From a bacterium (GTDB lineage Bacteria; Krumholzibacteriota; Krumholzibacteriia; LZORAL124-64-63): a stretch of DNA of 20,586 bases. The first letter of the stretch is position 1; each line of letters begins with the position of its first letter. Positions 177-19,911 of the stretch are shown piece after piece. Under the pieces are notes generated by a model. The model had not been told where the DNA came from. It was given only the letters and a program-made list of their open reading frames with translations, and searched no databases. The translations under genes were made by a program, and so were the position numbers. The DNA lies in contig JANOEP010000069.1 of assembly GCA_031441465.1 (NCBI GenBank), positions 1 through 20,586 of the forward strand, written 5' to 3'.

Positions 177-214
177 AGGGGATGTGGACCGCAATCCCAA
201 CCACGGAGCTGACC

Positions 215-1525
215 ATGCGCGACCCGGACCTCTTCCTGCTCGAACACGCCGACCCCCTGGTCACGATGGACCCCGCCCGCCGCGTCCTGGACGACGGCTG
301 GGTGGCGGCGCGCGACGGGCTGATCGTCGGGGTGGGCGCGGGTCCGGCGCCCGCGCAGATCGACGGCGAACCCTGCGCGCGCTTCCGGCGGCTCGACGCG
401 CGGGGCCGGGTCGTGCTGCCGGGCCTGGTCAACACGCACCACCACCTCTACCAGACGCGCACGCGGGCCTGGCCCGGCGCCGTCGACGCGGAGCTGTTCC
501 CCTGGCTCGAGACGCTCTACCCGGTCTGGGCCGGCCTCTCGGACGAGGACGTCCACCGCGGCGCGCTGGTCGGCTGCCGCGAGCTGCTGCGCTCGGGCTG
601 CACCACGACCACCGACCACCACTACCTGTTCCCGCGCGACGCCTCGCCGGAGCTGATCGACATCACGGTGGCGGCGGCCCGCGAGGCGGGCATCCGCTTC
701 CACCCCACGCGCGGCAGCATGTCGCGCTCGCGGAAGGACGGCGGCCTGCCGCCGGACTCCGTGGTGCAGGACCACGACACGATCCTGGCCGACAGCGAAC
801 GGGTCATCCGGCTGCACCACGACCCCGCCCCGGACGCGATGACCCGCATCGCGCTCGCCCCCTGCTCGCCGTTCTCGGTCACCCCGGAGCTGATGCGCGA
901 CACGGCCGCGCTGGCCCGCCGCTTCGGCGTCCGCCTGCACACGCACCTGTCCGAGACGCGCGACGAGAACGACTACTGCACGCGCGTCTACGGGATGCGG
1001 CCGGTGGACCTGCTGGAGGACTGCGGCTGGCTGGCCGACGACGTCTGGCTGGCGCACGGCATCTGGTTCGACGACGCGGAGATCGCGCGGCTGGGGCGCG
1101 CGGGCGTCGCGATCGCCCACTGCCCCACCTCGAACATGCGCCTGGGCTCGGGCATCTGCCGCGTGCGCGACCTGCGGGCCGCGGGCTGCCCCGTCGGCCT
1201 GGCGGTGGACGGGTCGGCGAGCAACGACTCCTCCCACCTGCTGGCCGAGCTGCGCCAGTGCTTGCTGCTGCACCGCGTCCTGGGCGGCGCCGGCGGGATG
1301 ACGGTCGGGGAAGTGCTGGAGATGGCGACCCTGGGCGGCGCCGCCTGCCTCGGGCGCGACGACGTGGGTTCGCTCGCGCCGGGCAAGGCCTGCGACCTGG
1401 CGCTCTTCGACCTCGGGGACCTGGCCTACGACCGCGTGGGCGACCGCGTGGCCGCTCTGCTGCTCTGCCACCCCCGCGACGCCGCGGCGGTCGTGGTCGG
1501 CGGTCGTGAGGTCGCGCTCGGCTGA
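215..1525 (+). CDS. 8-oxoguanine deaminase-like metal-dependent amidohydrolase (AtzB/8-OGD subgroup), 436 aa
   Basis: Motifs PGLVNTHHHLYQT, GCTTTTDHHY, PCSPFS (characteristic of 8-oxoguanine deaminases), HTHLSET, AHCPTSNMRLGSG and VDGSASND. Start moved to ATG 215 because of GGAG at 205-208. Confidence 0.85.
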   Translation: MRDPDLFLLEHADPLVTMDPARRVLDDGWVAARDGLIVGVGAGPAPAQIDGEPCARFRRLDARGRVVLPGLVNTHHHLYQTRTRAWPGAVDAELFPWLETLYPVWAGLSDEDVHRGALVGCRELLRSGCTTTTDHHYLFPRDASPELIDITVAAAREAGIRFHPTRGSMSRSRKDGGLPPDSVVQDHDTILADSERVIRLHHDPAPDAMTRIALAPCSPFSVTPELMRDTAALARRFGVRLHTHLSETRDENDYCTRVYGMRPVDLLEDCGWLADDVWLAHGIWFDDAEIARLGRAGVAIAHCPTSNMRLGSGICRVRDLRAAGCPVGLAVDGSASNDSSHLLAELRQCLLLHRVLGGAGGMTVGEVLEMATLGGAACLGRDDVGSLAPGKACDLALFDLGDLAYDRVGDRVAALLLCHPRDAAAVVVGGREVALG

Positions 1526-7400: not shown

Positions 7401-7760
7401 ATGCCAGTCGAGCGTCTGGTCCGCGCCGGCGTGGAACGTCAGCCGGCGCGGCGCGCCGCCGGCGGTCGGCATCACGTAGACGTCGGCGCCGCCGTCGTAG
7501 TCGCCGGTGAAGGCGACCCACTGGCCGTCAGGGCTGAACCTGCCGGCGGTCTCGAAGCCGGGACCGTTGGTGAGCCGGTGGGCCCGGCCGCCGGACGCCG
7601 GCGCCAGCCAGAGGTCGTCCTCGTAGGTGAAGACGAGGTGCTCGGCGCTGATGTCGGGGTTGCGCATGAGCTGCGACGCGCCCGGTGCGGAAGCGGACAC
7701 GCCGGCGGGCGCGGCGGCCGTCAGCACGACCGCGAGGGTGAGGATGGCCAGTCGTTTCAA
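4428..7760 (-). CDS. Tricorn protease homolog (peptidase S41; beta-propellers, PDZ, catalytic domain), exported, about 1110 aa
   Basis: TolB/PD40-like repeats (FSPDGQWVAF, WHPDG, FSPDGKRLAY, WSPDG), 'QMFDEAWR..RDWFYDEGMHGVDW', ELNIGHTY (His), PDZ-like segment, GYLHLPDM, IDERDNGGG, catalytic TGSNGE and GMRTWGG. TTG start at 7760 is preceded by AGGAGGAG and followed by the signal peptide MKRLAILTLAVVLTAAAPAGVSA. Confidence 0.92.
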   Translation of the reverse strand: MKRLAILTLAVVLTAAAPAGVSASAPGASQLMRNPDISAEHLVFTYEDDLWLAPASGGRAHRLTNGPGFETAGRFSPDGQWVAFTGDYDGGADVYVMPTAGGAPRRLTFHAGADQTLDWHPDGRRILFRSAREHPLGQPQLFLVDREGGLPEKVAVDRGALASFSPDGKRLAYNRIAREGATWKRYQGGMAQDVWVADFASGAIVKVTDFEGTDNFPMWWQDSIVFLSDREDGTLNLYAMDPAGSGVTRLTQYRDYDVKSPGCGAGMVVYQHAGGLRVLDLATGADREVAIDVATDRAPMRSELVDAAPATGSFGLSPAGERLLLEARGEILSLPAEKGEWFDLSRSSASREKNAAWSPDGRWVCFVSDRSGEEQLYLADQRGRDPWRSLTPDNRGFLLQPVWSPDSQRILWGDKFMRLNMVDVGTGKITVIDQGEYDDAWERWGILDYVWSPDGQWVAYSKNTENMNEVICLYGLASGKITQVTDDFFTSWSPGFDPEGRYLWFLSNRTFTPIMDRQDQNHIFMDLAKPYLVLLKDGERSPFFEDPGLVTATVDDKKADDKKDPDGSGDAGKAAATRVDLAGLGERVLAVPGVDAGNYFRLTATADGCLMLRRDEPIFSKYQTVDDRTAESDLALVAYDIEEREAKDLGAGLANYHLSADGKKMAYRAGAAYGVVDAGQEFKPGDGAVDLDGVRLRVDRAQEYRQMFDEAWRIERDWFYDEGMHGVDWRKIHDKYAALVPWCGARGDLTYLIGEMIAELNIGHTYVYGGDQQHAGEPSRTAMLGCDFAVDQPSGGVRIARILPGRSWDADARSPLDEPGVDVREGDFLLAVDGRSLAPRANPYELLADGAGRTVELTVADNPEGKHPRTVVVEPLRGEVGLRYRAWVEANRRYVEEKSGGRLGYLHLPDMGEAGLVEFGAYWYPQAGKEGLVIDERDNGGGFVGDMIIDRLERVLWSMTIPREGGPGRNPERVFHGPLAVLINEDTGSNGEFFAEAVKVRDLATVIGMRTWGGAIGIEPHQDLVDGGTVTPPQFGLYDLHGKWIIEGRGVEPHLAVQNQPANVVAGKDEQLDFAIGHLLGRLKDEGATWRIPATPAYPDKSKPGEGVRK

Positions 7761-7822
7761 GGGATTCTCCTCCTGGGGGACGGCTCGTGGTGGGTCGGAA
7801 CTCCGTCGTCGGGATACGGGCA

Positions 7823-8206
7823 TCAACCGGGGATCCCCGGCTTGACCATGAACGTCTTTTCCTTACGAATCTCGACCGTGCCCGGTTTCGCGCCCTGCGG
7901 TTTCGTGACGAAGCGGGCCGGCGTCCCGGAGACCGCCACCAGCTTGGCCTCGCGCACCTTGCTGTGCCAGGCGGCGACCGCGGCGGCGGCCTCGAGCACC
8001 TCGCGCGGCGGCTCCTCGCCCGCCGGCACCTGCAGCACGACGTGGCTGCTCGGGCGGCCCTTCACGTGGAACCACCAGTCGTTGGCCTTGGCGATCTTCA
8101 GGCTGAGGCGGTCGTTGTCGGCGTCGGTGCGGCCGGCCAGCACGACCCAGCCGCCGGGCAGCTCGTAGCGCCACAGGGAAGGCTCCGGGGGGCGGCGGTC
8201 CGTCAT
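7823..8206 (-). CDS. Stand-alone NFACT-R (DUF814) RNA-binding domain protein, 127 aa
   Basis: [40 protein letters not shown] and [12 protein letters not shown] match the NFACT-R domain of RqcH/FbpA proteins. ATG 8206 overlaps the upstream stop (ATGA), with GAGGCGG RBS-like sequence upstream. Confidence 0.88.
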
Positions 8207-8880
8207 GTCGCCGCCTCGAGGAAGGTCGCCACTTCGTCGAAGGGCTTGCGGTGGAGATCGGGCACCGTGCAGCCCGGCGCGGGATGGCCGACGACCAGCA
8301 GCAGGAAGGGCCGCTCGTGCCGGGGCCTGCCGAGCACCTCGTTGAGGAAATTCATGGGGCTCGGCGTGTGGGTCAACGTCGCCAGGCCGGCCCGATGAAA
8401 GGCGGTGATCAGCATGCCCGTGGCGATGCCCACGGACTCCGTAGGGTAGTAGTGCGTGACGCGCTCGCCGTCGGGTCCGACTCCCTGGCGCATCTGGAAG
8501 ATGGCGATCAGCCAGGGCGCCTTTTCCAGGAAGGGCTTGCACGCATCCGTGCCGAGCGGGCGCAGGGCCTCGAGCCAGTCCCCCGGAGCGCGACCGCCGT
8601 AGAAGGTCCGCTCCTCGGCCTCCGCCGCTTCGCAGATGCGGTGCTTGACGGCCGGGTCGCTCACGGCCACGAAATGCCAGGGTTGCTGGTTGGCGCCGCT
8701 CGGGGCGCTGGCGGCCGCGCGCAGGCAATCGGCGATCAGCGCGGCCGGCACCGGCCGGTCGCTGAAATCGCGAACCGAGCGGCGACAGGCCAAGTCCTCG
8801 GCGAAATCGCGGGCCCGGGCGGCCGCTTCCGAGGGTGCCCGTTCGCGGAAATCCAGGGGTATGCGGGGAGCTTCGTCCAT
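8203..8880 (-). CDS. Iodotyrosine deiodinase (IYD)-like flavoprotein, nitroreductase superfamily, 225 aa
   Basis: RRSVRDFS and [12 protein letters not shown] (FMN binding), lid EAEERTFY...[38 protein letters not shown] and C-terminal VPDLHRKP. This layout is characteristic of the IYD subgroup. AAGGA upstream of ATG 8880. Confidence 0.85.
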
Positions 8881-9093
8881 GGCGGTCCTTGCTGCGCGGT
8901 GGGTGGCACGGATCTGGGCCAGTCTAAGCCCTGGGGCGTCCTGCGGCTCGGAAAAACTGGAACCGGGACCCCGGTTTCGTGTAGATTGGCCCCGGTTGCC
9001 CGGCGGCGCCGCCCACCAGCGGCGTCTGTCGTGTTTGGGCGCGCGCCGGGCTCCCTCATCCCAAACCAACCCAGCTACGGAGGACTCGAAGCG

Positions 9094-10053
9094 ATGATCG
9101 AGGTACGTGACGTCACGAAGCGGTTCGGAGCCACCGTCGCCCTCGACGGCGTCTCGTTCCGCCTCGACAAGGGCGAGATCCTCGGCTTCCTGGGGCCCAA
9201 CGGGGCCGGCAAGAGCACCGCCATGAAGATCGTCACCACGTTCCTGGCGCCCGACGCGGGCACGGTCAGCGTGGACGGCATCGACGTGCTCCGCAATCCC
9301 CTGGAAGTCCGCAGCCGCATCGGCTACCTGCCGGAGAACCACCCGCTGTACGTGGACATGATGGTCCACGAGTACCTGCAGTTCGTCGGCCGGGCGCGCG
9401 GCCTGGCCGGCGACGAGCTGCGGCGACGGCTGGAGTGGGTCGTGGAGGCCTGCGGGCTCGGCAGCGTCTTCCGCAAGCCGATCAACGAACTCTCCAAGGG
9501 CTTCCGGCAGCGCACCGGCCTGGCGCAGGCGCTGATCCACGATCCCGAGGTGCTGATCCTCGACGAGCCCACCAGCGGGCTGGACCCCCTGCAGATCATC
9601 GGCATCCGCGAATTGATCCAGGGGCTCGCCCGCACCAAGACGATCATCTTCAGCACGCACATCCTGCAGGAAGTGTCCCCGGTCACCGACCGCGTCGTGA
9701 TCATCAACGGCGGGCGGATCATCGCCGATGGGCGCATCGGCGAGCTGGAGCGGGCGGCCATGGGACGCAACCGCATCTACGTCGCCTACCGCGCCCCGGC
9801 CGCCGAGGTCGAGGCGGCCCTGCGCGACCTGGGCGGCCTGCACGAGGTGCGGCCGGTAGCCGGACGCGAGGGCGCGGCCCGCTTCGAGGTGCGCGCCGAT
9901 TTCGAGCATGACATGCTGGCGCCGCTGAGCCGGCTGGCCCAGTCGCGCGGCTGGGACCTGCTGGAGCTGCAGGAGGCGCCGTTCAGCCTCGAGGACACCT
10001 TCATCGCCCTGACGCGACAGAGCGGGGCTTCCCGGGAGGTGAGCCATGTCTAA
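9094..10053 (+). CDS. ABC transporter ATP-binding subunit (ABC-2 / GldA-like), 319 aa
   Basis: Walker [15 protein letters not shown], signature LSKGFRQR, Walker [11 protein letters not shown] switch and C-terminal SLEDTF. GGAGG RBS upstream of ATG 9094. Confidence 0.93.
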
Positions 10054-10771
10054 CACCGGCGTGATCTTCCGCCGCGAATTCGCGGCCTACTTCAACAGCC
10101 CGATCGCCTACATCTTCATCATCGTGTTCCTGGTGCTCAACTGCGGCTTGTTCATGACGCCGTTCTTCCTGGCGCAGCTCGCGGACATGCGCGACTTCTT
10201 CGGGAACCTGCCGCTGTTCCTGATCTTCTTCATCCCCGCGGTGACCATGCGGCTGTGGGCCGAAGACAAGCGCAGCGGCACCTTCGAACTGCTGATGACG
10301 CTGCCCATGAAGTCCAGCGAGGTCATGCTCGGCAAGTACTTCGCGGCGATGGCCTTCTACGTGGTGGCGCTGCTCGGGACGCTGCCGATCCCCATCATGC
10401 TGGCGCTGCTGGGCAACCCCGACCTGGGCGCCGTGTTCGGCGGCTACCTCGGGGCGCTGCTGCTGGGCGGCCTGTACATGGCCGTGGGCATCTTCACCAG
10501 CGGCCTGCTGCGCGACCAGATCTCCGCCTTCATCCTGGGCATGCTGGCCTGCTTCGCGCTGTTCCTGGTCGGGGTGCCGGCCGTTTCGGCCACCATCGAC
10601 GGCTGGGTCGGCGGCTTCGGTTCGTTCCTGCAGAACGCGTTCGGCCTGATGCCCCACTACCAGGCGCTGCAGCGCGGCGTCCTGGAGCTGGGCGACCTCG
10701 CCTACTTCCTGGGCCTGACGGCCGTGTTCCTGGTCCTGAACGCCGTCTGGCTGGAAGGGAGGAAGTACTGA
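10046..10771 (+). CDS. ABC-2 type permease (GldF-like), 241 aa
   Basis: [38 protein letters not shown] and about 6 hydrophobic segments. Overlaps the ATPase stop by 8 nt; GGAGG RBS. Confidence 0.9.
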
Positions 10772-12480
10772 TGAGCACCAAGCGCCGGAACTTCCGCGTG
10801 ACCTTCGCCGTCACCGCCCTGCTGCTGCTGGCCGTGTCGGTGCTGCTGACCGACGTGCTGGGCGGCTTCGGCGGCGCGCGCGTCGACCTGACCAGCGAGC
10901 GCCTGTACACCATGGCGCCGGCCGCCAAGGACATCCTCAAGGGGCTGAAGGCCCCCGTGCAGGTGAAGCTCTACATCACCGGCGCGGCGGCCATGCCGAC
11001 CGAGCTGAAGACCCTCGAACGCGACGTCACCGACAAGCTGCGCGACTACGCCCAGGCGTCCGGGGGCATGATCCAGTACAGTATCCACGACCCGCAGGAC
11101 GACGAGGACCTCCAGGGCAAGTTGTCGGAGCGGGGAATCCAGCCGTTCCAGGTCCAGTCGATCGAGAAGGACGAGATCGGCGTCAAGCTGATCTGGAGCG
11201 CCATGACCGTGGCCTACAAGGACCGTCCCGAGGAGATCATGCCGCAGGTCCTGCCGCAGTCGCTGGCCACCTTCGAGTACGACCTGATCTCGCGCGTCTA
11301 CCGCCTGACCCGCGACCGCGACCCCAAGGTGGCCCTGATCGCGCCGCTGCAGGAGATCGACCCGCAGACCGCCATGCAGTACCTGCAGCGCGGCATGCAG
11401 CCGCCCGAGCCCGTGGACGTCTACACCTCGATCGCCCAATACCTCCAGCAGGAGCACTACCAGGTCGAGCGCGTGTCGCTGACGCCGGATTCGCGCATCC
11501 CGGCCGACGCCGACGCGCTGCTGGTGCTCAACCCGTCGGGCTTCGACGAGCGGCAGGCCTTCGAGATCAACCGCGCCATCAGCAACGGCACCAACACGCT
11601 GATCGCCGTGCAGCTGCACACCTACGGCTACCAGCCGGGCATGCGTGGCGGCTTCACGATCAGCGGCGCCAGCCAGACCAGCGGCCTCGAGTCCGTGCTG
11701 GGCGCCTTCGGCGTGACCGTCGACACGCGCCACCTGCTGGACGCCAGCCACGAAACCCTGGCCGTGCCCCGCACCCAGAACGTCGGCGGCATGCGCTTCC
11801 AGACCAACGAGCCGGTGCGCCTGCCGGTGCAGGTCAAGGTCACCGAGACCCAGATGAACCAGGACTCGCCCCTGGGCAACCGCATCGCGAACCTGCTCTA
11901 CCTGTGGGGCACCGCCCTGGACCTGGACACCGCCAGGCTCGGGACCAACGGCCTGACCTCGACGGTGCTGTTCACCGCCAGCGAGCGCGCCTGGCGCGCG
12001 CCGTTCACCGACGGGATGCTGCCCGGGAGCCTGTTCTCGCCCGAGGGCAAGCAGATCGAGCCGAGGCTGCCCCTGGCGGTGCTGCTCGAGGGCACCTTCC
12101 CCGACGCCTTCGCCGGCCGCCCGACTCCCGTCTGGCCGACGGCGCCCGACGCCGCCGTCTCGCCGGCACAAGACACGCCGACCCCGCTGCGCGGCGACGA
12201 GGCCCGCGTCGCGGTGATCGGCTGCGCCAAGATGTTCGACGACATGGGACTGCAAGCCGGGCAGAACGCCCTGCTGCTGCTCAACGCCGTCGACGCCCTG
12301 ACCCACGGCGAGGAGATGATCTCGATCCGCTCGAAGGCTCTGACCCAGCGCGTGATCCGACCGGTCGACGACGGCGAGAAGCTCTTCTACCGCCTGTTCG
12401 CCGCCGTGCTGGTGCCCGTCGCCCTGGCGGCCTTCGGCCTGCTGCGGGCCGCGAAGCGCCGCAAGGAGGCGGCGCGATGA
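10771..12480 (+). CDS. GldG-family ABC transporter auxiliary component, 569 aa
   Basis: N-terminal TM helix, RVDLTSERLYTM (GldG 'DLT...Y[ST]L'), thioredoxin-like region (IHDP...GIQP), FEYDL, LLNAVDALT...ISIRSK..R and a C-terminal TM with basic tail. TGATG overlap with the permease. Confidence 0.88.
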   Translation: MSTKRRNFRVTFAVTALLLLAVSVLLTDVLGGFGGARVDLTSERLYTMAPAAKDILKGLKAPVQVKLYITGAAAMPTELKTLERDVTDKLRDYAQASGGMIQYSIHDPQDDEDLQGKLSERGIQPFQVQSIEKDEIGVKLIWSAMTVAYKDRPEEIMPQVLPQSLATFEYDLISRVYRLTRDRDPKVALIAPLQEIDPQTAMQYLQRGMQPPEPVDVYTSIAQYLQQEHYQVERVSLTPDSRIPADADALLVLNPSGFDERQAFEINRAISNGTNTLIAVQLHTYGYQPGMRGGFTISGASQTSGLESVLGAFGVTVDTRHLLDASHETLAVPRTQNVGGMRFQTNEPVRLPVQVKVTETQMNQDSPLGNRIANLLYLWGTALDLDTARLGTNGLTSTVLFTASERAWRAPFTDGMLPGSLFSPEGKQIEPRLPLAVLLEGTFPDAFAGRPTPVWPTAPDAAVSPAQDTPTPLRGDEARVAVIGCAKMFDDMGLQAGQNALLLLNAVDALTHGEEMISIRSKALTQRVIRPVDDGEKLFYRLFAAVLVPVALAAFGLLRAAKRRKEAAR

Positions 12481-13505
12481 CCCGCAACCGTCCCCTGCTG
12501 ATCCTGGCCCTGACCGTCGTAATGCTGCTGGCCTTCAGCGTCGTGCAGCGGGTGCTGCACCGGCGCGCCGTGACGTCCCCGACCACCGCCACCGTGGTGG
12601 CGGCGGACTTCGAACCGGCGGACATCAACCGCGTCACGGTCGGCACCGCAGCCGACTCGGTGGCGGTCGTGCTCGAGCGGCTGGGCGAGGGCTGGGTCGC
12701 CCGCACCGCCTGGGGCCATCCCGTCGACCCGCGCAAGCTCCAGGAGCTGCTGGCGGCCCTGGACAGCCTGCAGGGGGACTTCCGCTCCGACGAGCCGGCG
12801 ATCCTGGAAGACTACGGTCTGGGCCCGCAGTCGGATCCCGTGAAGGTGACCCTGTTCGGCAAGGACTGGCAGCCGGTCTGCGCGCTGCTGCTGGGCAAGC
12901 GCGCCGACGACGGCTCGGGCGTCTTCGTGCGCGCGCCGGGCAGCCACGCGGTCTACCTGGTCAGGACCGAGGTGCGGGGCAAGCTCGGGCTGTGGGCCCC
13001 GGAGGCGAAGCCGGAGACGCGCACGTTCCTGGACCTGTCGGTGTTCAAGACCGACGCCGCCGGCATCCGCCAGATCGCCCTGCACGACGGGGACAAGACC
13101 CTGGTCATGGAGAAGGTCCTGACGACCGCCGGATCCGGCGACGGGTCCGCGCCGCCGCCCCAGGACTGGGAGTGGACGCTGACCGCACCCTCGCGCCGCG
13201 CCCTGGCGAAGACGAAGGTCGACGGCGTGATGAACGCGCTGACCGGCATCCAGGCCGCCGACATCGCCGACCCCGGAGTCGGCATGGAGAAGTACGGCCT
13301 GTGGAAGGCCGCACGCCGCGTCGAGGTGACGCTGGCGGACGGTTCGACCTTCGAACTGCGCGTCGGCGACGCGCAGCCGGCCACGGGGGGCGCCCAGCCG
13401 GGGCGCTACTGCATGACGTCGCGCGACACCAGGATCTGGGTGATCCGCGAGAACAAGCTCGACCAGATCTTCAAGAAGCTCGCCGACCTGACGCCGGACG
13501 CCTGA
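12477..13505 (+). CDS. DUF4340 domain membrane-anchored protein, 342 aa
   Basis: N-terminal TM anchor and two internal repeats of the pattern 'W......P.D..K...LL.AL..L.......YGL...V.....L.LG'. Position after GldG is typical. ATGA overlap with a GGAGG RBS. Confidence 0.8.
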   Translation: MTRNRPLLILALTVVMLLAFSVVQRVLHRRAVTSPTTATVVAADFEPADINRVTVGTAADSVAVVLERLGEGWVARTAWGHPVDPRKLQELLAALDSLQGDFRSDEPAILEDYGLGPQSDPVKVTLFGKDWQPVCALLLGKRADDGSGVFVRAPGSHAVYLVRTEVRGKLGLWAPEAKPETRTFLDLSVFKTDAAGIRQIALHDGDKTLVMEKVLTTAGSGDGSAPPPQDWEWTLTAPSRRALAKTKVDGVMNALTGIQAADIADPGVGMEKYGLWKAARRVEVTLADGSTFELRVGDAQPATGGAQPGRYCMTSRDTRIWVIRENKLDQIFKKLADLTPDA

Positions 13506-13526
13506 TCCGGTCCGCCGGCCCCGCCC

Positions 13527-13558
13527 AACGCCCGGGCGGCCCTCTCCCGGGCGTTTTT
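13527..13558 (+). terminator. Rho-independent terminator of the ABC operon
   Basis: Perfect 10-bp stem AACGCCCGGG (13527-13536) / CCCGGGCGTT (13546-13555), 9-nt loop, T run 13554-13558, 21 nt after the DUF4340 stop. Confidence 0.75.
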
Positions 13559-13642
13559 GCTTGCAGATTCAGGGGCCGGGGATGATCCTGAACCTGTACC
13601 TGACACGATGTCCCCCACGCGCCCAGCACCGGAGGCCAGGAC

Positions 13643-15010
13643 TTGAAGCAGAGCGTAACAAGCGCCCCCGGGGTGCTGCTGACCAACGCGAACGTGCTGG
13701 ACTACCTGCCGCCGCAGATGAACGCGGCGCCCGACCCGCGCGTCGAGACCGCCGACCTGCGCCTCGCGGGCGGCCGCATCGTCGAGCGCGGACGCGGTCT
13801 CGCGCCGCACGACGGCGAAGAAGTCCGCGACCTGGACGGCCGCACGGTCATGCCGGGACTGATCAACGCCCACCACCACCTCTACTCCACGCTGGCGCCG
13901 GGCATGCCGCCGCCGGCGAACACGCCGCGCAGCTTCCAGGACGTGCTGACGGAGATCTGGTGGAAGCTGGACCGCGCGCTGGATCCCGAAGCCATCCGGA
14001 TCAGCGCGGTGTCGGGCGCCTGGGACGCGCTGCGCTGCGGCACGACGATGATCTTCGACCACCACAGCAGCCTGACCTCGGTCGGCGGCTCGCTCGACCT
14101 GGTGGAAGAGGGCCTGCGCGACGCCGGCTTGCGCGGGTGCCTCTGCTACGAGGTCACCGACCGCGGCGGGCCCGGCAGCCGCGACACCTGCCTGGAGGAG
14201 ACTCGCCGCTACCTGCAGAAGACCGCCGCGCCCGTCGACGGCGTTCCCGTCGTCGGCGTTCCTTGGTTCAAGGGCCTGGTCGGCGCCCACGCCGGCTTCA
14301 CGCTGGAGGACGCCACGCTCGACAGCCTGGCGGCGCTCTGCTCCGAATTCGATACCGGCGTGCACATCCACCTGGCCGAAGGCGCGACGGACCGCGAGAT
14401 CTGCCATGACCGCGGCTGGCCCGACCCGCTGGTGCGGCTGGACCGGCACGGCCTGATCCGCCCCCGCAGCCTGCTGGCCCACGGCGTGGACCTCACCCCG
14501 CTGGACCTGCAGACGATCGAGGAGAAGGGCGCCTGGCTGGTGCACAACGGCCGCTCGAACATGAACAACGGCGTCGGGCGCGCGCCGGTCGACCGCTTCC
14601 CCCCGCGCAGTTGCCTGGGCACCGACGGCCTGGACGGCAACATGTTCGGCGAGCTGCGCACGACGTTCTACCGCGGCAACGAGACCGGCCGCGGCCCGTT
14701 GGGCTTCAAGGGCGCCGAGCGCTTCTGGATCGGCGGCTACCAGCTCGCCCGCGAGATCTTCGGCGAACCCTTCGGTTCGCTGGACGCCGGCGCGCCCGCC
14801 GACTTCTTGATCGGCTGCGAGGACCAGAAGCAGCCGCTGCACCAGGGGAATTGGCTCGGCTTGCTGCTGTTCGGCATGCAGCCCCGCGTGATCCAGGAAG
14901 TCTGGGTCGACGGCGCGCCGCGCTACCGCCGCGGCGATCCGGCGCCGTACGACGGCAAAGCCTGCCGCGCCGCCGCCAAGCGTATCTGGGACCGCATGTC
15001 CAACCTCTGA
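13643..15010 (+). CDS. ssnA: SsnA-like amidohydrolase (purine ring-opening / 'selenium metabolism-linked' family), 455 aa
   Basis: MPGLINAHHHLYSTLA, L.EIWWKLD, GTT.IFDHHSS, CYEVTDR, GAHAGFTL, HIHLAEG, SNMNNGVG and LGTDG are SsnA-family signatures. TTG start with GGAGG at 13631-13635. Adjacent to ygeY/ygeW-like genes. Confidence 0.8.
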   Translation: MKQSVTSAPGVLLTNANVLDYLPPQMNAAPDPRVETADLRLAGGRIVERGRGLAPHDGEEVRDLDGRTVMPGLINAHHHLYSTLAPGMPPPANTPRSFQDVLTEIWWKLDRALDPEAIRISAVSGAWDALRCGTTMIFDHHSSLTSVGGSLDLVEEGLRDAGLRGCLCYEVTDRGGPGSRDTCLEETRRYLQKTAAPVDGVPVVGVPWFKGLVGAHAGFTLEDATLDSLAALCSEFDTGVHIHLAEGATDREICHDRGWPDPLVRLDRHGLIRPRSLLAHGVDLTPLDLQTIEEKGAWLVHNGRSNMNNGVGRAPVDRFPPRSCLGTDGLDGNMFGELRTTFYRGNETGRGPLGFKGAERFWIGGYQLAREIFGEPFGSLDAGAPADFLIGCEDQKQPLHQGNWLGLLLFGMQPRVIQEVWVDGAPRYRRGDPAPYDGKACRAAAKRIWDRMSNL

Positions 15011-15075
15011 TCCACGACACCGGCTGGTCGCCCCCCACAACGGGCGCGCCCGGCCGGGGCGTATCCGGAGCCGCG

Positions 15076-16287
15076 ATGACCACGAAGAACCCCCTCGACG
15101 CCGCCCGCGCCCTCGAAGCACCCATGATCGCCTTCCTGCGCGACATCGTCGCCATCCCGAGCCTTTCGGGACAGGAGGAACGGGTCGTGCGCCGCGTCGC
15201 GCAGGAGATGGAACGCGTCGGCTTCGACGAGGTGCGCCTCGACGGCCTCGGCAACGTGCTCGGTCGCATCGGCGACGGTCCGCGCGTGGTGGCCTTCGAC
15301 GCCCACCTCGACACCGTCGATGTGAGCGATCCCGCCCAGTGGCTCTGCGACCCCTTCCGGGGCAAGCTGGAAGACGGCCGCGTCTACGGCCGCGGGTCCG
15401 TCGACCAGAAGGCCGGCATGGCCGGCATGGTCTACGCCGGCAAGCTGATGAAGGAACTCGGGCTGCTCGATGGCTGCCAGGTGTGGATGGTCGGCTCGGT
15501 GATGGAAGAGGATTGCGACGGCCTCTGCTGGCACTACATCCTGCAGGAGCAGCTGCTGCGGCCCGAGGTCGTCGTCTCGACCGAGCCCACCGGCCTGACC
15601 CTGACCCGCGGCCAGCGCGGGCGCATGGAGATCCGGGTCACCTCGCACGGCGTGTCGTGCCACGGCTCGGCACCGGAGCGCGGGGTCAACGCCGTCTACA
15701 AACTGGCGCCGGCCTGCGCGGCGATCGAGCGGCTGAACGACCGGTTGGGACACGACGACTTCCTGGGCAAGGGCACCTGCACCGTCAGCATGTTCCAGAG
15801 CCTTTCGCCGAGCCTGTGCGCGGTGCCCGACAAGGCCGAACTGCACATCGACCGCCGCCTGACCGCGGGCGAGACCCGCGACGGCGCCCTGCGCGAGGTG
15901 CGCGAGGCCCTGGCCGCGGCCGGCGTCGAAGCCGAGGTGCGGCTGCTGACCTACGAGGTCCCCGCCTGGACCGGCCTGGTCTACCCCATGGAGAAGTACT
16001 ACCCGACGTGGCTGATGCCCGCGGACCACCCCGCGGTGCGCGCGGGCGTCGTCGCGCACGCGGGCGTGTTCGGCGCGCCGCCCGTGGTCTCGCGCTGGAC
16101 CTTCAGCACCAACGGCGTGGCCATCAACGGGCTGCACGGGGTGCCCTGCGTCGGCTTCGGACCGGGCCAGGAAGCCCTGGCCCACGCCCCCAACGAGTAC
16201 GTCCCGGTGGACGACGTCGTGCGGGCCTGCGCCTTCTACACGGCGTTCCCGCAATCCTTCCTGAACATCGACCGAGGTGCGACATGA
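15076..16287 (+). CDS. ygeY: YgeY-family M20 metallo-amidohydrolase, 403 aa
   Basis: FDAHLDTV, GRGSVDQKAG, MEEDCDGLCWHYI, STEPT, RGQRGRMEI, SCHGSAPERGVNA, FLGKGT, SPSLCAV, WTFSTNGV and AHAPNE match YgeY closely. GGAG upstream of ATG 15076. Confidence 0.9.
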   Translation: MTTKNPLDAARALEAPMIAFLRDIVAIPSLSGQEERVVRRVAQEMERVGFDEVRLDGLGNVLGRIGDGPRVVAFDAHLDTVDVSDPAQWLCDPFRGKLEDGRVYGRGSVDQKAGMAGMVYAGKLMKELGLLDGCQVWMVGSVMEEDCDGLCWHYILQEQLLRPEVVVSTEPTGLTLTRGQRGRMEIRVTSHGVSCHGSAPERGVNAVYKLAPACAAIERLNDRLGHDDFLGKGTCTVSMFQSLSPSLCAVPDKAELHIDRRLTAGETRDGALREVREALAAAGVEAEVRLLTYEVPAWTGLVYPMEKYYPTWLMPADHPAVRAGVVAHAGVFGAPPVVSRWTFSTNGVAINGLHGVPCVGFGPGQEALAHAPNEYVPVDDVVRACAFYTAFPQSFLNIDRGAT

Positions 16288-17261
16288 GCAAGATCCTGCA
16301 GGGCAAGCATTTCATCGACACCGAGGACTGGGCCGACGACGAGCTGGAACTGATGCTCGCGACCGCCGGCGACCTCAAGCGCAAGTTCTACCGCGACGAG
16401 CCGCACGCGCTGCTGCGCGACCGCACCCTGTTCGCGCTGCTCTTCGAGCAGAGCACCCGCACCCGCAACTCCATGGAAGCGGGCATGACCCAGCTCGGCG
16501 GCCACTGCCACGTGCTGACCCCCGACAAGCTGCAACTCAGCCACGGCGAGACGGTCATGGATACCGCGCGCGTGCTGGGCCGCATGGGCCACGGCATCGC
16601 CATCCGCAACTGCGATTTCGGCGTGGGCAACAAGTTCATGCGCGAGATCGCCGGCATCTCGCGCGTGCCCCTGATCAACCTGCAGTGCGACGTCTACCAC
16701 CCCTGCCAGGCGGCGGCCGACATCATGACCGTGCGCGAGAAGTTCCGCGGCGAGACGCGGGGCCGCAAGATCGTCGTGAGCTGGACCTACGCCCCGAGCT
16801 ACGTGCGCCCCATCTCGGTGCCCCAGTCCGAGATCCTGATCATGACGCGCATGGGACTGGACGTGACGCTGGCCCACCCGCCCGAGTTCAAGCTGATGCC
16901 GGACATCCTCGAGCGCGCCCGCGCGAACGCGCGGCGCAGCGGCGGCAAGTTCGAGATCGTCGACGACATGGACGCTGGTTTCGAGGGCGCCCACGTGGTC
17001 TACCCCAAGAGCTGGGGCTGCCTGGTGCACGAGCCCGACCGCGCGGCCGCCGTCCAGCACATCGAGAAGTACCCCGGCTGGATCTGCGACGAGCGCCGCA
17101 TGAAGCTGGCCGCGCCCGACGCGATCTACATGCACCCGCTGCCGGCCTCGCGCGGCCAAGAGGTCACCGACGCGGTGATCGACGGCCCGCAGTCGGTGGT
17201 GTGGGACCAGGCCGAGAACCGCCTGCACACGGCCAAGGCCATCATGGCCCTCACCATGTAG
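16284..17261 (+). CDS. YgeW-related (knotted-type) carbamoyltransferase, 325 aa
   Basis: Carbamoyl-phosphate motifs STRT, HPCQ and HPLP. YgeW-like features HGET..TA, INLQCD, SWTYAPSYVRPISVPQ, LAHP and VYPKSW. No ornithine-binding SMG loop. ATGA overlap with ygeY; GAGG RBS. Confidence 0.85.
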   Translation: MSKILQGKHFIDTEDWADDELELMLATAGDLKRKFYRDEPHALLRDRTLFALLFEQSTRTRNSMEAGMTQLGGHCHVLTPDKLQLSHGETVMDTARVLGRMGHGIAIRNCDFGVGNKFMREIAGISRVPLINLQCDVYHPCQAAADIMTVREKFRGETRGRKIVVSWTYAPSYVRPISVPQSEILIMTRMGLDVTLAHPPEFKLMPDILERARANARRSGGKFEIVDDMDAGFEGAHVVYPKSWGCLVHEPDRAAAVQHIEKYPGWICDERRMKLAAPDAIYMHPLPASRGQEVTDAVIDGPQSVVWDQAENRLHTAKAIMALTM

Positions 17262-17277
17262 ACGCCGGGAGAGCGCG

Positions 17278-18519
17278 ATGCAGCTGCCGCAGGTCGGGAC
17301 CAATCCGCACTGGACGGGGTACGCCTGCGGGTTGTGCGGCAGGGCGCACCCGACGGACCACCGCGGCTTCGTGTGCGCCGGCTGCGGCGACGAGGGCATC
17401 CTCGACGCGACCTACGACTACGCGGCGATCCGCGCCGGCCTGCCCGACGGCGACCCCTTTCCGGCGCGGGGCCGGCCGGACCTCTGGCGCTACGCCGCGC
17501 TGCTGCCGCTGCAACCGGTGGCGCCCCACGCCTGCTGGTCGCTCGGCGACACGCCGCTGCACGCCCCGCACCGCCTGCGCGAACACCTCGGCCTGCCCCA
17601 CCTGCTGCTGAAGGACGACACCGCGCTGCCGTCGGCCAGTCTGAAGGACCGCGCCACGGCCATGGCGATGGCCGACTGCGCCCGCCTGGGCGTCGCGCAC
17701 GTGGCCGCCGCCTCGACGGGCAACGCCGCCGCCAGCCTCGCGGTGCTGGCGGCGCGCGCGGGCGTGCGCACGACGATCTTCGTGCCGGCCGCGGCGCCGC
17801 GGGCCAAGCTGGCCCAGCTCGAGCTGCACGGCGCCGAGGTCCGCCGCATCGACGGCACCTACGACGAGGCCTTCGACCTGTCCGTCCAGGAAACGCGGGC
17901 GCACGGTTGGTACTCCCGCAACTGCGCCTACAACCCGCTGCTGGTGGAGGGCAAGAAGACCTGCGCCCTGGAGATCGCCCACGCCCTGGATTTCCGGGCG
18001 CCCGACGCGGTGTTCGTGCCGACGGGCGACGGCTGCATCGTGTCGTCGACCGCCAAGGCCTTCCACGAGCTGGCGGAGGTCGGTCGCCTGGACCGCGTGC
18101 CGGCCGTGTTCGGCGTGCAGGCCGCGGGCGCCGCGCCGCTGTGCCGCGCCTGGCGGGAAGCCGGCGCGCGGGCCGCCGCGCTCACGCCGCGCGAGGTGCT
18201 GGCCGCCGTCGCGCCGGTCACGCCCGCGACCATCGCCGATTCGATCAGCGTGGGCGTCCCGCGCAACCGACTGAAGGCGTGGAAATACGTCGGGCGCAGC
18301 GGGGGCGGCTTCCTCGCCGTCGAGGACGAGGCGATCCGCGAGGCCATCCGCCTGCTGGCCCGACTCGCCGGCGTCTGGGCCGAACCGTCGGGGGCGGCGG
18401 GCTTCGCCGGCCTGTTGCTGGCCCGCGCGCAGGGGCTGATCGGGCCGCACGACAAGACCGTGGTGCTGGTCACGGGGCACGGGCTGAAGGATCCGCTGGC
18501 GGGGGTCCGGACGGATTAG
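17278..18519 (+). CDS. Threonine-synthase-like fold-type II PLP enzyme with N-terminal CxxC...CxxC, 413 aa
   Basis: CGLC...CAGC, LWRY, LGDTPL, PLP lysine in PSASLKDR, ASTGNAA, VEGKKT, VPTGDG, EPSGAAG and TGHGLKD. Starts 16 nt after the carbamoyltransferase; GGGAG RBS. Confidence 0.85.
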   Translation: MQLPQVGTNPHWTGYACGLCGRAHPTDHRGFVCAGCGDEGILDATYDYAAIRAGLPDGDPFPARGRPDLWRYAALLPLQPVAPHACWSLGDTPLHAPHRLREHLGLPHLLLKDDTALPSASLKDRATAMAMADCARLGVAHVAAASTGNAAASLAVLAARAGVRTTIFVPAAAPRAKLAQLELHGAEVRRIDGTYDEAFDLSVQETRAHGWYSRNCAYNPLLVEGKKTCALEIAHALDFRAPDAVFVPTGDGCIVSSTAKAFHELAEVGRLDRVPAVFGVQAAGAAPLCRAWREAGARAAALTPREVLAAVAPVTPATIADSISVGVPRNRLKAWKYVGRSGGGFLAVEDEAIREAIRLLARLAGVWAEPSGAAGFAGLLLARAQGLIGPHDKTVVLVTGHGLKDPLAGVRTD

Positions 18520-18564
18520 CCGCGCGCCCACGCGTCGTTCCCTGCTTCCAGGACTCTACATGTC

Positions 18565-19911
18565 TCAGCCCTGGCGCCGTTTATTCCGTTCGATCAAACC
18601 CACCACCACGAACGACAAGACGACGACCCCGGCGATCCCGATGACGAAGGGCCGCGCCGGTGCGCCGCTTCGCCGCTGGAACGGCTCGCCGAACCGCGCA
18701 TTGGGCCGGAAGTAAGCCTCCCCGTGCCGGTAGTCGAGGATCGTGTTGAAGCGCGCCAGCACCTCCAGGCACAGCACGCCGCCGGGCGGCGCCTGGTTGC
18801 CGGCTGAGGGCAGCTCCATATGGACCGGCACGTTCGGCAGGGAGAACCCCGCGATCACGAGTTCCGGCACCAGCACGACCTCGTTGCGGATCACCGCGCT
18901 GCCCACCCCGCGCGAGGCGCTCTTCCCGAGCACCCGCATCGCGCCGGGCAGACCGTGGGCCGCCGAGAAAGCCTGGTTGACGATCATGGTCCCCGTACCG
19001 GCGGTGTCCAGGACGAACAACCCGGCCTCCCTCTTCTCCCCGGCGACCAGGACGGTCTCCACCGCCGTGAGCGGGCCCGCGTACGGCATCGCGGTCTTCG
19101 CATATCCGGCCGACTTCGCGGGCAACTCGTCGTGGACGATCATGATCATGCGGTCGTAATCGATTTCGACCACCTTGCCCAGGAAAAGCGGCCAGCCGAC
19201 GATCCCGTCGGCCCGGTCGGCCTGCCTCTCCACCGCGATGAGCGGTTCGTGGTCCCACCGCAGCCCCGCGATGTCGAGCCGGTTGTCGCTGGCGGTCCGC
19301 CGTTCCGTCGAGCCGCCGGTCCCGGCGTTGATCGTCGTGCCGTCGAGCCGCAGTTCGGCTCCCTTGTCCAACGCGGACGGGTACAGGGCACAGCTTTCCG
19401 CCCCGGTGTCGAAGATGAGGTTCAGCGGCCCGGAACCGTTGATCGTGCCGACGACGTTCAGTTTGCCATTCTTGATCGAGATCGGGATGGTGTCGGGGCC
19501 GGCCGTGCGCGGGCCGAGCCGTTCGTATGCCTGCATCATCGTCGAGATTCGCGTGCGGCAGGAGTCCCGGCCCCCGAGCAGGACCGTGAAGTCGTAGGTG
19601 CGGCCGGGCAGGACGTCGAAGGAGAGCGAGTCGACGTCCGAGATGAACGTCACACGCTTCGCGGCGGTCGTCCTCAGCGCGGCGTAGACGTCGAGCGCGG
19701 CCGCGGGATCGACGACCCAGACGCCCTTCTGGAGACGGTCGCCGTCGCGGACGTCCACGGTCCCGGAATTCGCCGGGAGCACCGGCGGCGCCGCCCGGGC
19801 CGCGACGGCCGCCGTCACCAGGAACAACACCGGCAACCAGACGAACCGGCCATCCGCACGCCAGTGTCGAAGTGGCCACTGGGTCCGAGCTGCGGTGTTG
19901 CGCCATCGCAT
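18565..19911 (-). CDS. Retropepsin-like aspartic protease with two protease lobes and C-terminal membrane anchor, about 448 aa
   Basis: Lobe 1 has IFDTGA...DGIVG and lobe 2 has VLDTAG...GGVLC. Hydrophobic signal segment FVWLPVLFLVTAAVAARA; C-terminal FVIGIAGVVVLSFVVVGLI-ERNKRR. ATG 19911 preceded by GAGGGGG. Confidence 0.8.
   Translation of the reverse strand: MRWRNTAARTQWPLRHWRADGRFVWLPVLFLVTAAVAARAAPPVLPANSGTVDVRDGDRLQKGVWVVDPAAALDVYAALRTTAAKRVTFISDVDSLSFDVLPGRTYDFTVLLGGRDSCRTRISTMMQAYERLGPRTAGPDTIPISIKNGKLNVVGTINGSGPLNLIFDTGAESCALYPSALDKGAELRLDGTTINAGTGGSTERRTASDNRLDIAGLRWDHEPLIAVERQADRADGIVGWPLFLGKVVEIDYDRMIMIVHDELPAKSAGYAKTAMPYAGPLTAVETVLVAGEKREAGLFVLDTAGTGTMIVNQAFSAAHGLPGAMRVLGKSASRGVGSAVIRNEVVLVPELVIAGFSLPNVPVHMELPSAGNQAPPGGVLCLEVLARFNTILDYRHGEAYFRPNARFGEPFQRRSGAPARPFVIGIAGVVVLSFVVVGLIERNKRRQG

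Follow-up and report, generated by a model that had tools for sequence, protein, structure and literature searches.

A threonine synthase-like protein encoded in a bacterial purine-breakdown operon: a candidate substitute for diaminopropionate ammonia-lyase

Does a gene of thrC appearance that stands among genes of purine breakdown encode a threonine synthase, or does it serve the breakdown pathway? This question is raised by P0001, a protein encoded in a stretch of 20,586 nucleotides from a bacterium of the Krumholzibacteriota (assembly GCA_031441465.1). The stretch, called the window in what follows, is the entire contig JANOEP010000069.1 (contig C69 of the genome, here G000) and has a G+C content of 71%. 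The original prediction, made from the sequence alone, held that automated annotation would call the gene thrC, that its product appears to lack the residues that bind the phosphate of phosphohomoserine, and that it more likely eliminates ammonia from 2,3-diaminopropionate, or urea from 3-ureidoalanine (albizziin), giving pyruvate. Our analysis indicates that the ThrC-like gene is very probably a conserved part of the gene set for anaerobic bacterial breakdown of uric acid and not a housekeeping threonine synthase. That P0001 itself is a diaminopropionate ammonia-lyase is, in our opinion, plausible, if somewhat short of probable. P0001 and the residues discussed below are located as follows (rows are aligned sequences, described with the family alignment).

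17278..18519, plus strand: P0001, ThrC-fold pyridoxal phosphate (PLP) enzyme of 413 amino acids; stop-free translation, PALP Pfam domain at 228.6 bits
17326..17385, plus strand: four-Cys, zinc-ribbon-like motif at the N-terminus of P0001 (C17, C20, C33, C36), read from the translation
17644..17646, plus strand: Lys123, the PLP (Schiff-base) lysine, at the K of PTGSFKDR in the alignment to solved threonine synthases; 80/80 family rows
17917..17919, plus strand: Arg214, beside Asn215; 80/80 family rows, Leu, Val or Met in 16/16 canonical rows
17941..17943, plus strand: Leu222, at the position of the threonine synthase Arg in the alignment to 1uim, 2d1f and 2zsj
18028..18030, plus strand: Asp251, in the Gly-rich PLP-phosphate loop; 80/80 family rows, Asn or Gly in 16/16 canonical rows

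Both motifs on which the original prediction was built are read exactly as claimed from the translation of 17278-18519: NCAYNPLLVEGKKT forms residues 215-228 (nt 17920-17961), and PSASLKDR forms residues 118-125 (nt 17629-17652). The canonical pattern with which they had been compared is equally accurate. Thus, PTGSFKDR and NS.NP.R.EGQKT are found in 2d1f, 2zsj and 1uim (HMMER alignments) and in 7/7 short-type ThrC sequences of related genomes. We take it from the Thermus structure that the Ser and the Arg of the latter motif bind the substrate phosphate in threonine synthase. The counterpart of Leu222, counted on the printed alignment, is R160 of the Thermus enzyme, and Lys123 presumably corresponds to its Lys61. 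The STGNT loop of the solved threonine synthases appears in P0001 as STGNA (HMMER alignment). In the PLP-phosphate loop, GDG replaces GNAGN or GGGTG, the GNAGN loop reading GDGCI; threonine synthase presumably has a phosphate ligand where P0001 has Asp251.

Profile searches place P0001 near threonine synthases and outside their curated limits. It scores 253.5 bits with the PRK08197 model of thrC (cut-off 303) and 149.5 bits with TIGR00260 (cut-off 167.1). Of the features that define membership in threonine synthase (EC 4.2.3.1), P0001 has the PLP fold and the lysine and lacks a score over the curated cut-offs and the Arg. With 50 bits against the DpaL model NF006058 (cut-off 276), P0001 is not a sequence member of DpaL/YgeX (NF006058, TIGR03528), the known diaminopropionate ammonia-lyases, and it reaches 62.3 bits with the cysteate synthase model TIGR03844 (cut-off 324.9). 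Its closest solved relatives in HMMER searches are the threonine synthases of M. tuberculosis, Aquifex, Thermus and B. subtilis. An AlphaFold (AF2) model, built from a 46-row family alignment, has a pLDDT (predicted local distance difference test score) of 95.2; in a Foldseek search of the PDB its best matches are the threonine synthases 2d1f, 6nmx and 2zsj, followed by threonine deaminases and serine racemases, and DpaL is absent among the top 49 structural matches. The ESM Atlas matches are clusters of the 'threonine synthase family' only.

The gene for P0001 is the final gene of a tight operon, the other members of which are these:

13643..15010 (start at 13643 or 13673), plus strand: SsnA-like amidohydrolase; 321.6 bits with NF005540 (SsnA), under the cut-off of 444; 32% identical to E. 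coli SsnA
15076..16287, plus strand: YgeY-family M20 hydrolase of 403 amino acids; 523.2 bits with NF009555, over the cut-off of 321; 55% identical to E. coli YgeY
16284..17261, plus strand: carbamoyltransferase of 325 amino acids, similar to ornithine carbamoyltransferase (OTC); OTCace_N and OTCace Pfam domains; 34% identical to E. coli YgeW

The ATG of the carbamoyltransferase gene overlaps the ygeY stop codon by 4 nt as ATGA. The gene for P0001 follows after a gap of 16 nt, its ATG is preceded by the Shine-Dalgarno-like GGGAGAG, and the next gene downstream is convergent. A scan of positions 13000-19000 gave no promoter-like site and a single terminator-like site, which lies within the SsnA-like gene; this count is not above that of shuffled sequences. 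The carbamoyltransferase is the best of three tblastn matches to E. coli YgeW in the genome, and it remains under both relevant NCBIfam cut-offs (OTC, 254.7 bits against 306; YgeW, 200.7 bits against 453). In agreement with the original prediction, neither hom nor thrB is found among the 14 open reading frames of the window scanned with Pfam.

Each of the neighbors has a homologue in a recently solved pathway. Two studies from 2025 showed that urate is degraded in E. coli by the island ygeW-ygeX-ygeY-hyuA-yqeA / ygfK-ssnA-ygfM-xdhD (PMC12507026; 10.1101/2025.04.24.650524). The pathway proceeds there from 2,8-dioxopurine through ureidomethyl-hydantoin, 2,3-diureidopropionate and a mono-ureido compound to 2,3-diaminopropionate, from which YgeX forms pyruvate; YgeW and YgeY precede diaminopropionate in this terminal part. 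Albizziin is the product of YgeW in one scheme (PMC12507026), and a 2-ureido compound is the intermediate in the other (10.1101/2025.04.24.650524); intermediates are described as (R)-configured and HyuA as D-specific (PMC12507026; 10.1101/2025.04.24.650524).

The genome G000, which is that of an uncultured bacterium and is 96.8% complete, was searched by tblastn with the E. coli K-12 pathway proteins (locus L083). YgeY has a single match, the one in the window, and the matches to YgeW and SsnA at the identities listed above are also in the window. An XdhD-like gene (41% identity) lies with small subunits, including the FAD subunit, on contig C16, and a HyuA-like hydantoinase (32% identity) on C67. 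An N-terminal piece of YgfK begins contig C27 (132-1325) and is cut by the contig end, and carbamate kinase is split between two contig ends (C29:598-1140 and C52:3-494). NCBIfam agrees with the identities of the upper-pathway, HyuA and carbamate kinase genes, all of which score under the equivalog cut-offs. In this assembly, therefore, the pathway is partly fragmentary because of contig ends. YgeX (at 1e-5), YqeB and YqeC gave no match in G000, and the top match of the DpaL model NF006058 in the genome is P0001 itself, at 45.5 bits against a cut-off of 276. The operon with YgeY and a YgeW-like carbamoyltransferase, together with the missing DpaL, gives good support to the placement of P0001 at the diaminopropionate/albizziin end of purine breakdown.

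The original prediction had also suggested a search for a second, canonical thrC. Such a gene is present on contig C47: it scores 557 bits with PRK08197 (cut-off 303), reads YRLEGKKT and keeps the Arg. The objection that P0001 could be the only thrC of its genome thus fails for G000. It should be noted that no homoserine kinase of the types TIGR00191, TIGR02535 or TIGR00938 was found in G000 despite the PRK08197-type thrC on C47, and threonine synthesis in this genome is not completely explained.

A survey with one genome per species recovered 79 loci with P0001 relatives. Those in Gemmatimonadota-like, Krumholzibacteriota and 'Fibrobacteraceae'-labelled metagenome-assembled genomes (MAGs) are 57-96% identical to P0001; relatives at 36-47% identity occur in Bacillota, Thermotogota, Chloroflexota, Caldisericota, KSB1, Bipolaricaulota, Cloacimonadota, Armatimonadota, Elusimicrobiota and Acidobacteriota, so that this ThrC-like family spans more than 10 phyla. 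Neighbors were counted in flanks of at most 8 kb per side, many contigs being shorter. A carbamoyltransferase is found at 48/79 loci, YgeY at 32, an SsnA-type amidohydrolase at 28, carbamate kinase at 20, xanthine dehydrogenase (XDH) subunits at 13-21, HyuA at 10 and YgfK at 4. True YgeX (51% identical) is a neighbor at one locus, L062. At least one purine-pathway gene lies within 8 kb at 63/79 loci, and the ten loci with neither a pathway gene nor the CysK-like partner described below are mostly on short contigs or from Elusimicrobia. The order YgeY, carbamoyltransferase, ThrC-like protein recurs in 22 of the 24 close loci. Next after the ThrC-like gene of Thermobrachium celere (L031), in the genome of which DpaL was not found, come YgeY (with 72% identity to the E. 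coli protein) and YgeW (66%). A Clostridiales MAG (L053) has the ThrC-like gene in a same-strand row of about 15 genes, including YgeY, a carbamoyltransferase, HyuA-like and SsnA-like amidohydrolases, a UacX-type reductase and XdhD. At five loci (L043, L044, L046, L067 and L079), two carbamoyltransferase paralogues and carbamate kinase stand directly upstream of the ThrC-like gene, and YgeY is absent; in this variant both ureido groups might undergo phosphorolysis, for a yield of two ATP.

The family alignment comprises 80 rows: one from the window, 77 from the 79 loci (the truncated L007 and L026 being dropped), and one each from L113, which is the gene of L052, and from L130. Arg occupies the threonine synthase position in 9/9 rows of the PRK08197 type, 7/7 of the short threonine synthase type and 6/6 of a third threonine synthase-like clade, and in 0/80 rows of the family. 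Hence the claim that phosphate-site residues are missing stands for the Arg (Leu222 in P0001; 0/80 against 22/22 canonical or threonine synthase-like rows) and falls for the other residues named: many family members keep PTGS(F/Y)KDR and RN(S/T), and PSASLKDR and the Ser/Cys of 'NS' vary and are not diagnostic. More characteristic are residues absent from the 16 canonical rows, namely Arg214, Tyr195, Asp251 and Ser322 (80/80 each) and Arg329 (78/80). C17, C20 and C33 of the N-terminal motif are invariant in 80/80 family rows and in 9/9 PRK08197 rows. An Arg one residue past the threonine synthase position occurs in 6/80 family rows. Among these, the Elusimicrobia sequences of L045, L061 and L064 form a subclade reading NPYAREGKKT; no purine genes lie within 8 kb of any of the three, and neither a CysK-like partner nor another thrC-type match was found in the genomes of L045 (G031) and L064 (G041), that of L061 being outside the search.

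A quick maximum-likelihood tree was made from 113 rows (LG+G4, with the Shimodaira-Hasegawa-like approximate likelihood ratio test, SH-aLRT, as the sole support measure). In it, the 80 family rows form one clade with a support of 99, apart from the PRK08197 clade, which includes the C47 gene, and from the short threonine synthase clade. The class II thrC loci L101-L106, which had no blastp match to two references, are outside the tree. The expected mislabelling is found in relatives more than in P0001: the sources name them 'threonine synthase', and many distant members pass the TIGR00260 equivalog cut-off (e.g., 232.5 bits for G020:C27:5048-6022), but P0001 itself scores under both cut-offs. 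Standard pipelines will label the members that pass TIGR00260 as threonine synthase.

The distribution of the family is a further line of evidence. Of 301 Bacillota genomes, sampled evenly, 87 have YgeY (86 over the cut-off) and 61 have the family, 60 of the latter being YgeY-positive; family calls were made with a profile at E <=1e-120, the accepted scores being 488-590 bits and the next-best matches <=323. The cross-table of YgeY and family (60 with both, 27 with YgeY only, 1 with the family only and 213 with neither) gives a Fisher p of 1e-40. Such a distribution would not be that of a housekeeping enzyme. The nesting in YgeY-positive genomes, the conserved purine context and the canonical thrC on C47 together uphold the claim that P0001 is not the housekeeping thrC.

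Analysis of 80 of the 87 YgeY-positive genomes yielded the family in 57 and DpaL in 22, making the ThrC-like family the commoner companion of YgeY in this sample. DpaL is present with the family in 9 genomes and without it in 13; it is absent from 48 genomes with the family and from 10 without it. The two are negatively associated (odds ratio 0.14, p 6e-4), and they tend toward mutual exclusion, which is not strict. Among 50 family-carrying genomes, DpaL exceeds its cut-off in 2.

P0001 relatives rarely occur without a second PLP protein. Pfam scans of eight loci revealed, near the ThrC-like gene, another PALP protein of 450-500 amino acids. It is a remote relative of cysteine synthase, with 86-141 bits against the cysK model (cut-off 351), and its closest solved relatives are CysK enzymes; no characterised relative of this long CysK-like protein was found. 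An AlphaFold model (pLDDT 93.6) has the CysK core with added helices. The copy of the genome under study is as follows:

G000:C26:41695-43152 (= L134:9696-11153), minus strand: long CysK-like PALP protein of 485 amino acids, far under all NCBIfam cut-offs

It lies on a separate contig among unrelated genes and is 60% identical to a KSB1 copy. The CysK-like gene is within 8 kb of the ThrC-like gene at 28/79 loci, and the partner is present in 47/50 family-carrying genomes. Among the 80 YgeY-positive Bacillota, 55 have both proteins, 2 the ThrC-like protein only, 3 the CysK-like protein only and 20 neither (Fisher p 1e-13). Hence it is two PLP enzymes together that alternate with DpaL; their co-occurrence is new here. 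In the purine clusters of two Chloroflexota loci, a family-2 glycosyltransferase is encoded between or beside the two PLP genes (L066:9271-10218 and L030:13006-13947).

Taken together, these data show that the ThrC-like family is a distinct, widespread and ThrC-derived group that is tied to reductive purine breakdown, paired with a CysK-derived protein and often annotated as threonine synthase. Its substrate, its reaction and the split of work with the partner are what we infer from this context. In the pathway, the C3 core of the purine leaves as 2,3-diureidopropionate, from which a YgeW-type carbamoyltransferase and YgeY remove the two carbamoyl groups. In the mechanism that we propose, P0001 would then catalyse PLP-dependent α,β-elimination of ammonia from 2,3-diaminopropionate to give pyruvate, substituting for DpaL/YgeX, which is absent from G000 and the cluster place of which it occupies. 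Asp251 may meet the cationic β-amino group where threonine synthase meets an anionic phosphate. P0001 would be the ThrC-fold half of a module of two PLP enzymes, with the CysK-like protein as the other half. Since every other step has an enzyme in complete clusters such as L053, 2,3-diaminopropionate (less likely albizziin) remains as the substrate. YgeW and YgeY orthologues at 62-72% identity argue that the intermediates are unchanged.

What weighs against this assignment is best considered together with the rival explanations. The near-obligate CysK-like partner could be the lyase in place of P0001, and DpaL and the family coexist in 9 of the 80 YgeY-positive Bacillota. In G054 (L135, G054:C20:13000-32900), ssnA and the genes for the ThrC-like and CysK-like proteins are followed 5 kb on by true ygeX beside ygeY, a carbamoyltransferase gene and yqeA; in G040 (L062, G040:C86:29073-33284), the pair and DpaL are adjacent. 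The pair is therefore not simply redundant with DpaL. One explanation, to our mind unlikely but the likeliest of the rivals, is that P0001 acts at the same step without being the lyase: the CysK-like partner would eliminate ammonia, and P0001 would perform an accessory PLP reaction on the C3 amino acid, either racemising the D-isomer supplied by the D-specific hydantoinase route or swapping the β-amino group for water to give serine. The co-occurrence counts (47/50 genomes; 55/2/3/20, p 1e-13), the 28/79 loci with the pair within 8 kb and the nine genomes in which the module stands alongside DpaL all fit such a role, as do the (R)-configured intermediates and the D-specific HyuA of the published schemes (PMC12507026; 10.1101/2025.04.24.650524). 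Threonine synthase chemistry, which finishes with the addition of water at Cβ, also speaks for it. Against an accessory role, the window and 22/24 close loci have P0001 and not the partner in the YgeY/carbamoyltransferase operon, and no fold-type II racemase is known in the ThrC or CysK branches. The module might also serve another part or branch of the pathway, such as a ring-opening side product or support of the upper pathway. The G054 arrangement would suit this explanation, with the pair beside ssnA and DpaL with ygeY, the carbamoyltransferase gene and yqeA, and so would G227, where the module adjoins xdhABC and ssnA and where DpaL and YgeY are on a different contig, and Thermosipho, where the ThrC-like gene shares an operon with xdh genes. 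We nevertheless consider it improbable: of the 58 YgeY-positive Bacillota that lack DpaL, 48 have the family as their sole candidate for the diaminopropionate step, and in the window the gene for P0001 is coupled to genes of the lower pathway.

Elimination of urea from albizziin, the other reaction named in the original prediction, is quite improbable. YgeY, which removes the ureido group in question, adjoins in the window and at 32/79 loci, and clusters lacking YgeY often have two carbamoyltransferases (the five loci listed above). Furthermore, the 2-ureido compound of one of the schemes cannot bind PLP (10.1101/2025.04.24.650524). In favor of this reaction, albizziin is the YgeW product in the other scheme (PMC12507026), the set of R214, R329, D251, S322 and Y195 would be suited to binding a neutral, polar ureido group, and some Chloroflexota loci have a carbamoyltransferase and carbamate kinase and no YgeY within 8 kb. 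Finally, P0001 might be a true threonine synthase with a rebuilt phosphate site, its place in the purine cluster being secondary; we regard this as very improbable. In its favor are the ThrC fold, the many members over the TIGR00260 cut-off and the two new invariant Arg residues: Arg214 and Arg329, gained in the family, could still hold an anion and so compensate for the lost Arg. The Elusimicrobia subclade may be a true threonine synthase inside the family. Moreover, the ThrC-like gene is the sole strong TIGR00260 match in 20/50 carriers. To these belong 12 of the 16 close relatives as well as T. celere, two Thermosipho MAGs and two Elusimicrobia, and if they make threonine, the ThrC-like protein might be their synthase. 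This last objection is weakened because thrB is rarely detected and because a second thrC-type match is equally often lacking in genomes without the family (YgeY-positive Bacillota; 24/57 with the family and 13/23 without it). Thus, of 26 genomes tested, one has thrB over its cut-off; the GHMP-kinase matches in T. celere and the Thermosipho MAGs reach at most 57 bits against a cut-off of 168, and homoserine kinases of the three types searched in G000 were not found in most of the carriers with a sole thrC-type gene. Two of the close relatives have a thrC of the class II type, and a phosphoglycerate-mutase-like homoserine kinase adjoins it; the others show neither. Against a threonine synthase also stand the other thrC-type gene in G000 and 30/50 carriers, the presence of the family in 61/301 Bacillota, 60 of them with YgeY, and Asp251 at the place that we take to be that of the phosphate ligand.

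Returning to the pair in the light of these alternatives, we tentatively suggest, as a claim more doubtful than the lyase assignment of P0001, that the ThrC-like and CysK-like proteins form the commonest bacterial end of the 2,8-dioxopurine pathway, with chemistry that DpaL lacks (of the 80 YgeY-positive Bacillota, 55 to 57 have the pair and 22 have DpaL). This chemistry could be the inversion of a D-configured intermediate followed by elimination, or the conversion of diaminopropionate to serine or cysteine. Distinct pair chemistry would explain the genomes that keep all three enzymes in one cluster. If this is true, the textbook end of the pathway is a minority variant.

Comparison with known systems helps to delimit the family. 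With threonine synthases (TIGR00260 and PRK08197 types; 1uim/1v7c of Thermus, 2d1f of M. tuberculosis, 2zsj of Aquifex, 6cgq/6nmx of B. subtilis), P0001 shares the fold-type II PLP architecture, the lysine, the STGN loop and the EGKKT motif, and with the PRK08197 type also the N-terminal Cys4 ribbon. It differs from them in its scores under both cut-offs, the lost Arg, the change of Asn/Gly to Asp in the phosphate loop, its own R214, Y195, S322 and R329, its separate clade and a context of purine catabolism instead of hom/thrB. With DpaL/YgeX of the E. coli ygeW-ygeX-ygeY-hyuA-yqeA cluster it has in common the PALP superfamily, the cluster place by YgeY and a carbamoyltransferase and, as proposed here, the net reaction; unlike DpaL, it is accompanied by another PLP protein, and P0001 and DpaL are only 25% identical over 140 residues. 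Like cysteate synthase of methanogens (TIGR03844), P0001 would be a ThrC relative with a different reaction. Cysteate synthase retains a phosphorylated substrate, unlike the substrate proposed for P0001. The published 2,8-dioxopurine pathway (PMC12507026; 10.1101/2025.04.24.650524) is matched in G000 by a YgeY orthologue, by YgeW-, SsnA-, HyuA-, XdhD- and YgfK-like genes and by carbamate kinase; it differs there in that the genes are distributed over several contigs, that tblastn found no homologues of YgeX, yqeB and yqeC, and that the carbamoyltransferase is OTC-like and not of the knotted YgeW type.

We found no paper on a ThrC-like variant of the pathway in literature searches that combined threonine synthase with diaminopropionate ammonia-lyase or uric acid, or used the pathway intermediates, as judged from the listings; the CysK-like partner was not among the search terms. 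Text searches gave no occurrence of the word 'threonine' in PMC12507026 or in two preprints of 2022 (Kasahara et al.; Liu et al.), of 'threonine synthase' in the Dodd-lab 2025 preprint (10.1101/2025.04.24.650524), or of 'cysteine synthase' in the two 2022 preprints, to which the search for this term was confined. Li et al. 2025 scored 'YgeX' neighbors by PF00291 (PMC12507026). This Pfam family cannot separate DpaL from the ThrC-like family, and their YgeX counts would take in the latter.

Such distinctions matter because the anaerobic urate pathway, solved in 2025, is used for the design of urate-lowering probiotics and for the scoring of gut metagenomes. If most pathway carriers use the module, gene sets that require YgeX miss them, and sets that count any PF00291 neighbor merge unrelated enzymes. 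Analogously, threonine synthase labels inflate predicted threonine prototrophy, e.g., in Thermobrachium celere and the Thermosipho MAGs. If the proposed assignment is true, it adds a new reaction to the ThrC fold, with the loss of the Arg and the gain of Arg214, Asp251, Ser322 and Arg329 as its signature.

The remainder of the window contains one further gene of purine metabolism, and two other features lie between it and the operon:

182..1525, plus strand: 8-oxoguanine deaminase, a purine-feeding enzyme; 617.2 bits with NF006055, over the cut-off of 532
4428-7826, minus strand: Tricorn-type protease of 1132 amino acids, with PD40 repeats, Tricorn C1 and PDZ domains and an S41 domain
8251-13505, plus strand: ABC ATPase, ABC-2 permease, GldG-like auxiliary protein (ABC_transp_aux, DUF7088) and DUF4340 protein in a row

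The deaminase gene shares the contig with the operon, of which it is not counted as a member. The row at 8251-13505 is a gliding-motility-type ABC export set, situated between the deaminase gene and the purine operon.

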